From: Methanotrichaceae archaeon
Lineage (GTDB): Archaea > Halobacteriota > Methanosarcinia > Methanotrichales > Methanotrichaceae
Assembly (NCBI GenBank): GCA_963813075.1
Contig: CAWEXU010000008.1
Coordinates: forward strand, 1-15,264
Length of the DNA: 15,264 nt
Direction: 5' to 3'
The translations under genes and the position numbers were made by a program. The notes beneath the pieces were generated by a model. The model saw only the letters and a list, made by a program, of their open reading frames with translations. It was not told the origin of the DNA and ran no database searches. Every line of letters starts with the position of its first letter. Position 1 is the first letter of the stretch. Shown one piece after another: positions 6,778-12,100 of the stretch.

Positions 6778-6950
6778 AAGAAGTGACTGCTCCCCGCCCT
6801 AAAGAGCAGGGCTTCCACGGCTTCCTGTGCCGACAGATTGCAATCCCAATCTGAGAATATTTATCGCTGCGTTCCAATCCCGGTCCATCGACAGCCCGCA
6901 CTGAGTGCAGTTATGGACTCTATCGGACAGCGACTTTTCAATGAGAGTAC
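6765..6950 (-). ncRNA. Putative TnpB omega/reRNA of element #1 (boundaries approximate)
   Basis: TnpB reRNAs are known to overlap the tnpB 3' end and right end. The scaffold would end at TCAC (6783), with the guide from the flank TTCTTTCACTGTATCC. Confidence 0.5.
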
Positions 6951-7905
6951 CACACCTGGAACACATCTTAGACGTATTCCTTGGATCTACCAGGACCACC
7001 ACCGAACCGGCACTTGCAGCCTTGTAAGAGGTTAAAGTCACTAGCATGTTCCAAGCTACGTCTGAGATGCTTTTAGCCAGGCAATGATTATGAACCATGC
7101 CTTTGATGTTAAGATCTTCAAAAGCTATTAGACCAAATCTATCTACCAAGTTATGACTAACCTGATGGGCAAACTCATATCGCTTGTTAGCTATCCGCTC
7201 ATGGACTCGCTCAACAACCTTAAGAGCTTTCTTGCGATCTGGAGTTCCTTTAGGAGCCTTAGAGAGTTTCCTTTGGGCTCTAGCTAACTCGTGTTCTTCT
7301 TCTCGGAAGAATCGAGGATTAGCTATCGTCTCACCATTGGAAAAGGTGGCGAAGCTCTCAAGGCCGACATCAATACCTACTACAGCCCCATCTTTCCAGG
7401 GGGGGAGAGGAACATCTTCAGTTTCGACGGAGAAGCATGCAAACCATTTGCCTGTGGCTGTCCTTCTGACGGTCAGCCGTTTGATCTTGCCTTCTATCTG
7501 GCGATGGAGCTTGATCTTGATATCGCCTATCTTGGGAAGACGTACCATGCCGTTAACAAGATTGCCGCCCTTCTCAGGTTGTGGATAAGTAAATGAATCG
7601 TACCAACCCTTCCCTCGGAATCTGGGATATCCGGGTTCTTCTCCCGCCTTAACCCTTCTGAAAAAGGCTTTAAAGGCTAGATCTACCCGCTCCTGAACAT
7701 TCTGAAGGGTCTGAGCATATACGTCTCTCAGTTCGGGTTTATCCTCTTTCCAACCAGGAAGAAGAGCGTTCGTTTCATATTTGGAAACCGATTTGCCTTC
7801 ATTCTCCCAGGCGTTCTTTCTGTATGCTAGAGTCTGGTTGTATGTCCATCGGCACAAGTCCAGCGTTCGCTCCATCTTGGTTATCTGTGACTTCACATGA
7901 AAAAC

Positions 7906-7938
7906 TTAAAAAAACAAGATGCTGCGGTTCAACCGCAT
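7906..7938 (-). terminator. Hairpin + T-tract at end of IS110 recombinase
   Basis: Minus strand TGCGGT-TGA-ACCGCA, then GCATCTTGTTTTTTT. Confidence 0.4.
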
Positions 7939-9182
7939 CCCTCCTTCAAATCTTTCTCCACCAAGTATCCTGCCTGACTGATGATTTTTATCATCTCGTC
8001 GATATCCATCATGCTTATGGGCGAAACAGAGCTGGGTATTTTTGGTTTGGTTTTCTTGACCTCTGGCTCTTGATAATTCTCGTGATTCATAAGCAAATGA
8101 TAGAGAATGCAGAGCACTTTTCTGGCCAGCGCAACGGCTGCAATATTCTTCTTTCCGCACCTTGCCAAGATCCTCTGGAAGAATCTCTTTAACTTTGAAT
8201 TCTTCTTGGTCCTTGATATGGCTTTTGCAACTTCCACCAAGATCCTTCGCATATGCTTAGATCCCGTCTTAGTGATCTTCCCAGTTCGCAGCTTGCCTGC
8301 CGATTGGTAGACCGAAGGCACAATGCCGAAGTACTTTGCCATCTTATCCGCACTCGAAAAGTCCCTGTAATCTCCCATTTCTGCAATAATGGTAGCTGCC
8401 GAAATGAATCCAACGCCTGGCACGGATAAAGCAATTTTCAAATCCTCTTCGAAGGGTTTGACTTTTATGGCGATCTCAGCTTCCAGAATTTTTATCTTCT
8501 TACTGATATCATCTATGACATCAAGATTTGCCTTGATCAAAAATACCTGGACGGGATCTATTCCATTCCTAATGGCTTCTCTGAGTTCGTCCTCCTTTTT
8601 CCGAACCCTCTTCGAAGGTATTCCAGATATGATCTGATCGATCGTCTTTCCTTCCAGAAGCCTATCAATGATATATCTTCCAGATTTGCCAAAAGAGTCG
8701 GATATGACTGAGGAGAGCTTGATGCAGCAGGTCGAAAGTAATTGATGAATCTGGTTCTTGACTTTGGACCTTGCATTGACCAGTGTCTCACGAGCACGAG
8801 TTATGCTTCTTAGATCTCGGTAATCCTTCGGATAGATTCTGGAGGGCGTGATGAGATTATTGAGACAATATATCGCGATTCGTTCCGAGTCGAGTTTATC
8901 GGTTTTCTTGTGCTCAATATTCCGGATCTGATATGCATTGGCCAGGATAAATTCGACATGACCTTCCAGAATGGTGAAGATAGGATACCAAAAACCTCCC
9001 GTGGATTCTACAGCCAGCCTCTGGCATCTGTGGTTTAAAATCCAGGATCTAAATGCCAAGAGGCCATCTTGGTTCATATTAAAACGTTCTTGGAGCTTCA
9101 ATCCACTCCGGGATATCATTGTAGCAATAAGAAAATCCCTGTGGATATCCGCTCCGCAAACTATTTCCTTATCCGAGTCCAT
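7929..9182 (-). CDS. IS110 DEDD recombinase/transposase (~417 aa, start MDSDKEIVCGADIH)
   Basis: DEDD RuvC-like residues GADIH, AVESTG and KTDKLD. SVPGVG motif, Tnp domain GIVPSVYQSAGK with the catalytic Ser, and AVALARK. Confidence 0.95.
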   Translation of the reverse strand: MDSDKEIVCGADIHRDFLIATMISRSGLKLQERFNMNQDGLLAFRSWILNHRCQRLAVESTGGFWYPIFTILEGHVEFILANAYQIRNIEHKKTDKLDSERIAIYCLNNLITPSRIYPKDYRDLRSITRARETLVNARSKVKNQIHQLLSTCCIKLSSVISDSFGKSGRYIIDRLLEGKTIDQIISGIPSKRVRKKEDELREAIRNGIDPVQVFLIKANLDVIDDISKKIKILEAEIAIKVKPFEEDLKIALSVPGVGFISAATIIAEMGDYRDFSSADKMAKYFGIVPSVYQSAGKLRTGKITKTGSKHMRRILVEVAKAISRTKKNSKLKRFFQRILARCGKKNIAAVALARKVLCILYHLLMNHENYQEPEVKKTKPKIPSSVSPISMMDIDEMIKIISQAGYLVEKDLKEGCG

Positions 9183-9189
9183 CGTCTCA

Positions 9190-9345
9190 CTTGCCTGATA
9201 TGGGCAGATGATGATCACTCGTGCGTGCAACTTCACATACGCGTTCAAAGACGCATTTGGGCATCCGCGAGATCATGGTTGTCTTTGTGTCGAGATCAAG
9301 TCTCAGGGCACAGATCAGCCTTCACTGCCCATATCAGCCTTGCCT
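9190..9345 (-). ncRNA. Putative bridge/seek RNA of the IS110 element (boundaries approximate)
   Basis: 13-bp perfect closing IR (9195-9207/9325-9337). Two internal loops, each with a small hairpin (loops CUUGA, CUUUGA) flanked by 7-9 nt segments matching the target site and the element ends. Confidence 0.8.
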
Positions 9346-9463
9346 ATGACTCTATGGGTTTTTCATGCTTTGGGCATGATCCCTGCCTGAGGATCATGGG
9401 CTCTTTGTGGGATAAAGCCTGAACTTGTAAGCCTTAAGCATGTACAGTTCTAAGCCGTTATAG

Positions 9464-9544: not shown

Positions 9545-10063
9545 AGCACTGTAGACACCCTGGTCTCAAGGGTTCTGGAAGGAGCCAGGGAGGCGGGGCT
9601 TGATACCTCCAAGTACTTGCTCAATGAGATGAAGTACTCCGGCTGCCAGGCTTGCGAGTACTGCAAGTCTCATGATCACTGCCGCCTGGATGATGACGTC
9701 ACAAAGCTCTTAGAGGAGATGAAAGAAGCGGATGCCGTGGTCTTCGGCTCGCCGATATACTTCTCCCTGTTCAGCGGACAGTTCAAGCTGATGGAGGACA
9801 GGATGTACTCATTGATCGATGCGGCATTCGTCCCCCGCCTCCGCCCAGGAAAGAAGGCCATCATTGTGACCAGCCAGGCAGATGCGGAAGTTGAGAACTA
9901 TGCCAGAGCAGCGGATGATTTTGCCCTCGCCCTGAAGATGCTCGGATTTGAGGTGGCGGATATTATTCGTATGGTAGATGGCATCACCCCGGATGCCGTC
10001 CTGGCTAAAGGGGAACTGCTGGATATGGCGCGGTCTGCGGGAGCTGCCCTCGGCGGGCGTTAG
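9545..10063 (+). pseudogene. Iron-sulfur flavoprotein / NADPH-dependent FMN reductase, 5'-truncated
   Basis: Frame extends upstream of 9617 as STVDTLVSRVLEGAREAG to 9545. CQACEYC...C motif and GSPIYF present. The N-terminal FMN-binding GSPR loop and start codon are replaced by the IS left end. Confidence 0.8.
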
Positions 10064-10845
10064 AATAGACCCTGCTTAAGGCCGAGACCCTCAGGCCAAC
10101 CAGCCTGACCTTTTTTTTCTTTCTCAAGAATTGATCAACCAGTCGTTTGCCATTGTTCCGGAGAATATCCAGGTCATTGGTGGAAAAAGAGAGGGACCTG
10201 GCGCGAGTGAATGTATCGAAGTGCTCGTATCTGACCTTGACGGTGATGGTCTTGAAGCGAAAACCGCACTCGATCAGCTCACCATGAATCTCTTCTGCCA
10301 GCCCGTCCATCATCTGCAGGATGGGGGCAGCATCTTTTATATCCCTCTCAAATGTCACCTCTCTGCCAATGGATTTGGTCTCATAGTTCACTACAACCTC
10401 GCTGGGGTCGATGCCCTGGGCACGCTCATAGAGCCTCTTTCCGAGGATTCCCAGCTGCTTTACCAGGCGGTCGGGATCAGCTGCTGCCAGCTGGCCGATG
10501 GTCCTGATATCCAGATCAAGCAGTATCTCCTCCGTCCTCGGCCCCACTCCGGGTATCTTCCTGACTCCCAGAGGAGAGAGGAACTCCTTAGCTCCCTTTT
10601 CACTGATGACAGTCAATCCATAGGGCTTTCTGAAGTCTGAGCCGATCTTGGCCAGCATCTTGTTTGGGGCGACTCCGACCGAGCAGCTCAGATCCTCTCT
10701 ATCCAGGACCTCCTGCATTATTGTCCTGGCCAGGTTGGCGGCCTGATCGAGATCCTCCACTCGACCGGAGAGGTCAAGGTAGGCCTCATAAGATGCGCTG
10801 CTAACAACGCCCCGCCCCCTGCCCTCTTTGGGATCAGCGCCAACG
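10005..10845 (-). pseudogene. dinB: DNA polymerase IV (DinB) remnant, downstream part
   Basis: VGADPKEGRGRGVVSSASYEA, SVGVAPNKMLAKIGSDFRKPYG, IPGVG, KSIGREVTF and VRLVGLRVS. Lacks the N-terminus and has an internal deletion. Confidence 0.9.
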
Positions 10846-11010
10846 GTGACTACTCCCACCCCTTAAAAGGGGCAGGCTTCTACGGTTTTGATTCCGACAG
10901 ATTGTAGTCCCAATCTGAGTATATTGATTGCCGCATTCCAATCTCGATCCAAGGATAGCCCGCACTGAGGGCAGCTATGGACGCGATCAGAAAGCGTCTT
11001 TTCAACCAGA
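10828..11010 (-). ncRNA. Putative TnpB omega/reRNA of element #2 (boundaries approximate)
   Basis: Same right-end architecture as element #1. Guide would be CGTTGGCGCTGATCCC from the dinB flank. Confidence 0.5.
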
Positions 11011-12100
11011 ATGCCACACCTGGAACACATCTTAGACGTATTTCTTGGATCTACCAGTACTACCATCGAACCGGCACTTGCAGCCTTGTACGAGGTCAGA
11101 GTCACAAGCATATTCCAAGCCACGTCTGAGATGGATTTTGCTAGGCAATGGTTTTTGAGCATATTTTGAATACTAAGATCTTCAAAGGCAATCAAGCCGA
11201 ACCTGTTAACCAGATATCGACTAACCTTATGGGCAAAATCGTATCGCTTGTTAGCTATCCTTTCATGGACCCGCTCAACCATCCGAAGAGCTTTCTTTTC
11301 TCTCTGGAGTGCCTTTCGGTGCTTTTGAGAGCTTCCTTTGGACTCTGGCGAGTTCCGTTTCCTCTTCTCGGAAGAATCGAGGATTAGCTATCGTCTCACC
11401 ATTGGAAAGAGTCGCAAAGCTTTCCAGACCAACATCTACACCAACGAGAGAACCGTCTTTCCAGGGAGGCCTAAGTTGATCTTCGATCTCCACAGAAAAG
11501 CAGGCAAACCATTTACCTGTCGCAGCTCTCCTTACGGTCAGCCGTTTGATCTTGCCTTCTATGGATCTATGGAGCTTGATCTTGATATTACCAATCTTGG
11601 AAAGATAGAGCTTACCAGCATTGAGCTTGAACCCCTTCTGAGGATAGGTAAAAGAATCGTACCAACCTCTTCCCCGAAATCTTGGATATCCAGGATTCTC
11701 ACCGGCTTTGACTCTTCGGAAGAACGCCTTCAAGGCAAGATCCACCCTTTCCTGGGCATTCTGAAGGGTTTGGGAAAAGACATCGTTAAGTTCAGGCTTC
11801 TCTTCTTTCCAAGTTGGAAGAAGATTGTGCGTCTCGTACTTGGATACGGATTTGCCTTCTTTCTCCCAAGCATCTTTTCGGTATGCTAAGGTCTGATTGT
11901 ATGTCCACCGGCATAGATCTAGGGTCCTCTCCATCTTCGTCCTTTGGGACTTTGTTGGATAGATCCTAAATTTATATGCCTTGAGCATAGATACTTATTA
12001 TGCGGTTGATTGTGTTTATAGTTTTCTGCACAACGGTGGGGCACGATTCATCCCCTCCCCTGAAGGAGAGGGGTCTTCTCTGCCCCTACACCCCGACGTT
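10846..12100 (-). mobile_element. IS200/IS605-family tnpB-only element #2, 1255 bp, inserted in dinB
   Basis: Left end follows TTAT (12104-12101). Right end is GAAG-CCTGCCCCTTTTAAGGGGTGGG-AGTAGTCAC, ending at 10846. Excision restores dinB GRPVI/VGADP with no target duplication. Confidence 0.93.
10863..11988 (-). pseudogene. tnpB: TnpB with a single +1 frameshift (374 aa if corrected); possibly a sequencing error
   Basis: ORFs 11275-11988 and 10863-11282 join as ERKKALRMVERVH if one T is removed from the run at 11296-11299. All RuvC and Zn-finger motifs present. Confidence 0.9.

Follow-up and report, generated by a model that had tools for sequence, protein, structure and literature searches.

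An IS110-family element interrupts a tnpB gene within the window analysed here, the whole 15,264-nucleotide (nt) stretch of contig CAWEXU010000008.1 from a Methanotrichaceae archaeon, and its ends raise the question of which form of DNA its recombinase accepts as a donor site. For IS621, PMC11208160 describes a bridge RNA whose two loops each read the bottom strand with their 5' guide and the top strand with their 3' guide, the core belonging to all four guide pairings. In the present element both donor guides match one strand, so that the element probably must fold that strand to move, and judged by its sequence the recombinase is likely to take one DNA strand folded on itself as the donor site. 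The feature is real and conserved, and the element is an IS110 bridge system but not one of the IS621 duplex-donor type.

Pairing of the left donor guide

In the window copy the left donor guide matches an internal arm of the left end (Table 1) at 9/9 positions, on the same strand as the site of the right guide, compared with 4/9 for the ordinary duplex donor; the probability of a chance 9/9 match inside the left end is ~4e-4. An earlier note, made from the letters of this DNA, had proposed a folded donor on the basis of these matches. Its coordinates for the stems, bubble arms and guides hold, including the perfect 10-bp and 8-bp inverted repeats, and so do the recurrence of the 9-mer 9369-9377 at 9256-9264 and that of 7891-7898 at 9231-9238, the latter refined to a right guide of 7 nt followed by a 2-nt handshake. 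The CTT core that it placed on both sides of the bubble has to be given up, as the core is better read as TT and CTT is not conserved there; the CTT flanking the bubble is incidental because the arm letters at this point vary in relatives.

A recombinase match was found at 269 loci, of which 220 were near full length and 134 (114 distinct) were parsed automatically; L237 and L243 remained unparsed. A filter that made no use of the left guide kept 103 loci and dropped 11, and grouping these at 80% identity gave 39 clusters. Against the stretch lying 1–3 nt upstream of the left repeat, the left donor guide scored 7.64/9, with at least 7 matches in 35/39 clusters, whereas permuted guide-arm pairs gave 4.71 and reached the observed value in 0/5000 draws. 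With three mis-parsed or interrupted rows dropped (36 clusters), the values were 7.97 for the arm and 3.25 for the duplex site. Because an offset chosen by the guide would bias the match, the register was reset by stem pairing alone in 56 rows, from which 5 without an ATG arm were dropped. In the resulting 51 rows the arm scored 7.25/9 and the duplex site 3.04/9, with 37 rows and none, respectively, at 7/9 or better, and for positions 4–9 alone the scores were 4.47 and 1.33 of 6. Slid registers gave 1.2–1.7 of 6 against 4.9, the last value being inflated by register choice. Guide position 6 is the weakest, matching the arm in 24/51, and positions 1–3 also track the arm where it differs from the tip (e.g. 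L026 and L069). In 24 branch-disjoint pairs, guide differences were tracked on both sides in 29/62 cases at the arm and in 6/62 at the duplex site, and this covariation reaches down to ~30% protein identity. It is the internal arm, not the duplex half, with which the 5' donor guide covaries, and the complementarity of both donor-loop guides to one DNA strand, like the mismatch of the 5' guide to the canonical donor half, extends from the window to the relatives.

Positions 8–9 of the left donor guide are complementary to the core dinucleotide of the right guide in 0/36 clusters, and therefore no duplex donor can satisfy both guides. Bottom-strand pairing beside and including the core, the arrangement of an IS621-type donor, was found at 7/9 or better in 0/51 rows. 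The covariation and the incompatibility of the guides at the core together support a folded donor, single-stranded or cruciform, as had been suggested, and a departure from the IS621 duplex-donor model.

The target loop of these RNAs fits an ordinary duplex (6.3/9 against a null of 4.3; 26 parsed of 36 clusters), its two guides pairing with opposite strands of the target and overlapping at the core. Handshake pairing with the non-cognate strand is described for IS621 in PMC11208158; here both dinucleotides fit the non-cognate top strand in the window copy, and among relatives the target-loop side fits in 28/36 and the donor-loop side is mixed. The match of the right target guide runs beyond the core into the element tip in 28/36, which indicates that the tip is still top strand, as handshake pairing predicts. 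The RNA itself is predicted from the noncoding region upstream of the gene, where a closing stem encloses two internal hairpins. Two-sided changes at 12/36 consensus pairs (14 sequences) and the predicted fold argue for a two-loop bridge RNA at the element end. Rfam gave no real match, and a sigma-70 promoter scan, whose model does not cover archaeal promoters, stayed at chance level.

Table 1. Features of the element, its guides and its insertion site (window coordinates)
Feature	Position	Strand	Basis or remark
IS110-family element, 1512 bp	7894..9405	.	Rejoined flanks, empty-site joint, constant ends in other copies
IS110 recombinase, 417 amino acids with Met	7929..9182	-	PF01548 + PF02371
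Predicted bridge RNA body	9195..9337	-	13-bp closing stem, target loop, donor loop
Left target guide	9305..9314	-	8/10 to target 7884-7893, ordinary duplex geometry
Right target guide 9284-9290 with handshake GA 9282-9283	9282..9290	-	GA can pair with donor TC 9402-9403
Left donor guide	9256..9264	-	Pairs with + strand 9369-9377
Right donor guide 9232-9238 with handshake GU 9230-9231	9230..9238	-	GU can pair with target AC 7890-7891
Left subterminal inverted repeat, outer-stem arm	9358..9367	+	Perfect 10-bp inverted repeat with 7896-7905
Arm read by left donor guide	9369..9377	+	6 bubble bases and 3 inner-stem bases; would stand in for bottom strand
Inner hairpin, 8 bp, 8-nt loop	9375..9398	+	9375-9382 / 9391-9398 perfect inverted repeat
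Element tip, displaced top strand of left donor	9399..9405	+	Ends in donor-derived core TT (9404-9405)
Right donor	7894..7905	+	Includes right subterminal inverted repeat 7896-7905
Left target with target-derived core (7892-7893)	7884..7893	+	Guide match, junction comparison
Right target	9406..9410	+	Guide match
tnpB (IS200/IS605), 3' part of interrupted gene	6799..7893	-	Pfam and frame rejoining
tnpB, 5' part	about 9406-9440	-	Frame rejoining

Stems, junction cores and a proposed cycle

As DNA, the predicted junction of 72 nt has a folding energy of -13.6 kcal/mol (z -3.8; 0/500 shuffles as low), and the structure drawn in the earlier note scores -13.5 kcal/mol. Across the 36 clusters 327/360 pairs of the outer stem are Watson-Crick, with several pair types, and inner-stem pairs 3, 4, 5, 7, and 8 are Watson-Crick in 28–32/36, with up to four pair types. 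In relatives, compensatory changes are preserved in the two stems alike. The outer stem begins exactly at the end of the right guide, mirroring the inner stem, which in turn sets the left donor guide at a distance from the core equal to that of the left target guide. At another locus (L071, near 1562), head-to-tail tandem copies keep a natural right-end/core/left-end junction with the predicted tip.

With the guide order read as in the IS621 loops, the window + strand is the recombining ("top") strand of the element; it is antisense to the recombinase gene. In the folded donor that we favour, the inner hairpin would set the internal arm opposite the tip, where it would substitute for the bottom strand at the left guide, and the subterminal repeats would close the other side. 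Each donor guide would pair over a ready-made bubble and invade ~3 bp of stem, while the target would be read as an ordinary duplex. For IS621, mismatches at positions 2–7 promote complex formation and recombination, according to PMC11208158, and the fold would supply from one strand the open bubble that IS621 needed artificially. A cycle may begin with the top strand, exposed by replication, transcription or the recombinase itself, folding at the left end; both ends would then be cut 3' of the core, a single-stranded circle would be copied out or the strand transferred directly, the folded junction would exchange with the target top strand only, and host replication would complete the insertion. 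Folding in the cell, the circle with its strandedness, and the resolution step are the parts of this cycle that we infer. Single-stranded circles are reported for IS621 (10.64898/2026.08.31.748434) and top-strand pathways with top-strand circle release for CazIS110-1 (10.1101/2025.10.25.684509); the replication-orientation bias of IS110 elements is mixed in the literature.

The junctions reveal the side of origin of each core. Within the window's own lineage the left junction core is AA in 16/16 distinct junctions and the right junction is GA in 14/18, the 4 that match the left core all being the tnpB site. The two cores are identical in the window copy, whereas 14/18 right junctions in the lineage differ from the invariant left core. 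This pattern fits cleavage 3' of the core that is confined to the top strand; exchange of the second strand should leave target-type cores at some left junctions, barring biased repair. A search pattern that did not include the hairpin retrieved 16 mini-elements of ~75 nt in 8/105 genomes, which lack both the gene and the bridge RNA, and 14/16 still have the arm in its position and a left-end stem that folds at -4.9 kcal/mol or lower. Loci of this kind, ~60–110 nt long and made up of the two ends only, are L274, L277, L286, L289, L293, L298, L299, and L310-L325, and the minis are dispersed in two genomes, G015 and G016.

Several observations weigh against a folded single strand as the donor. 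Inner-stem pairs 1, 2, and 6 are often broken, being Watson-Crick in 16, 21, and 18 of 36 clusters; the top strand has the lower folding energy in 17/36, so that no strand is favoured; the lowest-energy fold leaves most of the arm unpaired in only 9/36; and the predicted folds close the bubble partly by G-T pairs. The direction of wobbles in the inner stem (19 antisense-type and 13 sense-type mismatches, compared with 13 and 11 in an RNA-stem control) does not tell the strands apart, and guide-arm mismatches, at 18 and 10, carry a weak strand signal. The guide is unchanged in 20/66 arm changes, automatic parsing failed for 86/220 near-full-length loci, and several bacterial members have short A/T stems with 6/9 matches only (at least 7 in 5/15). 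Retention of the stem in the minis may in part reflect recent origin. A right-to-left circle joint was not seen in four sequencing runs, of which contigs only were searched; this does not amount to absence, because contigs drop rare forms.

Alternative explanations and known systems

The alternative that survives best, although we regard it as unlikely, is a double-stranded circle in which fold-back is confined to the left end, as a hairpin or cruciform assisted by protein, with the repeats serving as protein-binding sites and the right donor as an ordinary duplex. The right guide would work equally well with a duplex, both strands fold equally well, and IS1111 elements also have subterminal repeats (PMC11187229), which are assumed to be protein sites; CazIS110-1 is described as integrating single- and double-stranded donors alike (10.1101/2025.10.25.684509). 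Against this, an 8-bp and often imperfect stem would have to outcompete a perfect duplex, the outer stem begins exactly at the end of the right guide, mirrors the inner one and keeps compensatory changes, and minis of ~75 nt should be very hard to circularise as duplex. The present data do not separate this possibility from the folded single strand.

It is improbable that left guide and arm form an R-loop of their own that serves end recognition or control, with recombination proceeding via the right guide only and the hairpin acting as a terminator or an RNA 5' stem. Half-match recombination has been reported for IS621 (10.64898/2026.08.31.748434) and 9375-9398 has a terminator-like score on the + strand, but the stem gives a guide-core distance equal to that of the left target guide, the guide overlaps the stem by 3 nt, and minis without a bridge RNA still keep the hairpin. 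An earlier inversion within the left end, yielding a normal duplex donor, is very improbable: IS110 enzymes are capable of inverting DNA and inverted repeats are present in the left end, but the two guides require different core letters, with 0/36 clusters compatible, and the same contig runs contained no strand-change joint. That the match arose by chance or is left over from an old duplication scarcely comes into consideration, since, although 9 nt is short and both sites start with a conserved ATG or AC, covariation at positions 4–9 alone and across the branch-disjoint pairs largely refutes it.

For recombination as a folded single strand, to which the sequence evidence points, the integron attC site offers a precedent. 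There, a folded single strand forms a pseudo-duplex site, one strand is exchanged and resolution is replicative; the enzyme is the IntI tyrosine recombinase, which recognises extrahelical bases and uses no RNA guide. The attC likeness claimed in the earlier note stands for the geometry, with a folded single strand as the probable site and resolution by replication proposed, and fails for the enzyme and chemistry, as an IS110 enzyme takes the place of the IntI that, together with the attC box pattern, marks an integron site. IS200/IS605 elements employ an HUH/Y1 enzyme with DNA guides, unlike the IS110 enzyme with RNA guides here; the likeness to their peel-and-paste movement (PMC3971601) would lie in a single-stranded element, a subterminal hairpin, and recognition by base pairing at the hairpin foot.

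Closer to home, IS621 and ISCro4 share with the present element a DEDD + Ser enzyme and a two-loop RNA upstream of the gene (PMC11208160, PMC11208158, PMC13626964), as well as a duplex target, handshake dinucleotides and a cut 3' of a 2-nt core. Their donor guides read opposite strands and both include the core, whereas here both read one strand and the core lies outside the left guide; in addition, the top strand of the present element is the antisense strand of the gene, and its protein is no more than a distant relative. CazIS110-1 and IS621 copy-out resemble our proposed cycle in top-strand-only excision, a single-stranded circle and top-strand integration (10.1101/2025.10.25.684509; 10.64898/2026.08.31.748434), but the parts available describe neither a folded donor nor an internal-arm guide. 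In ISPpu10 the IS110 enzyme is aided in recognition by a DNA hairpin, but that stem-loop lies on the target, where it acts as an enhancer, and opposite strands are still read by the guides (10.64898/2026.03.19.712850). IS1111 elements share subterminal inverted repeats of ~10 bp, short asymmetric end extensions, and the order in which the complement of the top strand comes first in the loop relative to the gene (PMC11187229). The repeats here fall in the 7–17 bp range of IS1111; unlike in that group, the left repeat lies 38 nt inside the end, behind an extra hairpin, rather than ~7 bp from it, the RNA is mostly upstream rather than downstream, and the protein has ~400–440 amino acids in the clade (417 in the window) rather than 330–350.

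Neither a folded donor nor same-strand donor guides are described in the available portions of PMC11208160, PMC11208158, PMC13626964, PMC11187229, and PMC3971601, or in those of 10.1101/2025.05.14.653916, 10.64898/2026.03.19.712850, 10.64898/2026.08.14.744561, and 10.64898/2026.10.21.760802. A full-text literature search, outside preprint supplements and most subscription journals, returned no folded donor, the nearest case in the accessible texts being the ISPpu10 target stem-loop. Whether IS110 intermediates are single- or double-stranded is debated in 2025–2026 papers, and this clade makes the question directly testable because both guides cannot pair with one duplex donor. The clade further suggests that subterminal repeats can act as stems and not as protein sites alone. 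Surveys that reconstruct the donor from the 25 nt flanking the core on either side would miss the site of the left guide, which lies 28–36 nt inside the end, so that such orthologues would be misprogrammed. If the folded donor is correct, these enzymes would be programmable integrases for single-stranded donors, and the duplex product, as a poor substrate, could favour insertion over reversal.

Reach, locus and neighbouring genes

The folded-donor layout occurs in methanogens and bacteria. In more distant loci (44, of which 15 were unparsed) the arm scored 6.4 and the duplex 3.0 against a null of 4.65, in 17 bacterial or viral-contig rows that include some near-duplicates; named hosts are Alicyclobacillus, Geobacillus, Bacillus, Paenibacillus, and Caballeronia plasmids. 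A looser second parse of rows failing the automatic one gave 7–9/9 in 9/10, taking the best candidate per row. Three loci with the bridge RNA downstream of the gene (L214, L215, and L266) have the same left-end layout and a guide-arm match of 6/9; they were not counted because this is no better than the 5–6/9 of the opposite strand. We entertain, at somewhat less than an even chance, that obligate single-strand transposons make up a large old IS110 branch found in methanogens and in several groups of bacteria, with a circle that never needs a second strand and ends that fold into their own site. The branch would then be an RNA-guided counterpart of integron cassettes, and any single-stranded cargo between ~60 nt of ends might be movable, as the minis suggest.

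From shared protein motifs judged by eye, the clade appears to include ISMac14, ISMba7, ISMba20, and ISMma5 of ISfinder and probably a cluster with ISCsa3 and ISSto4. The first four are named in the supplement of PMC11208160, which gives a representative protein, and no study of these elements came up in a literature search on their names. The name "ISGka2" in PMC8024623 refers to an IS701 element, which is irrelevant here. A second family member in the same genome, 42% identical and present in 3 copies (L003-L005; G000, C7 and C10), has other guides and the same layout. Left flanks resembling the right end of a family member were seen at L078, L133, L140, L143, L144, L153, L160, L163, L176, L253, and L261, with an upstream recombinase confirmed for L261 only; at L133 such an element lies directly past the own right end. 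A sub-lineage possibly targets its own relatives. In L300, L302, and L303 the truncated element breaks off precisely where the right target guide is encoded and runs into a target-like flank, as if the guide DNA had itself been used as a site, and L007 and L015, which are different elements, have a similar altered right end and a flank in common.

The recombinase combines the DEDD RuvC-like domain and the Tnp domain with catalytic Ser of the IS110 family. In an alignment with 23 relatives, D11, E58, D94, D97, and S293 (416-residue numbering) are invariant or nearly so. The IS621 protein is a distant match only (E 2.8e-10), and relatives at 82–97% identity are mostly Methanothrix, Methanotrichaceae, and Methanosarcinales records. 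A structure model places an extra C-terminal helix (393–412) after a disordered linker, beyond the length of IS621; this extension (window 7932-8005) is present in most relatives and absent from some, e.g. L250 and L251.

Joining the flanks of the element restores the tnpB frame, the ends are constant in other copies, and an empty-site joint at the predicted ends was seen in both DNA runs among the four runs, compared with a 96% relative. The insertion lies ~35 nt past the tnpB start and in the direction of tnpB, in the window as in L006, L030, L306, and L309, and several copies in G035 occupy the same tnpB site; with several copies at one site in gene direction, the tnpB promoter could drive the bridge RNA. 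Farther along the window, an open reading frame at 10005-10859 resembles, by eye, the C-terminal part of DNA polymerase IV (DinB), and a second tnpB, split over two frames, occupies 10863-11988.
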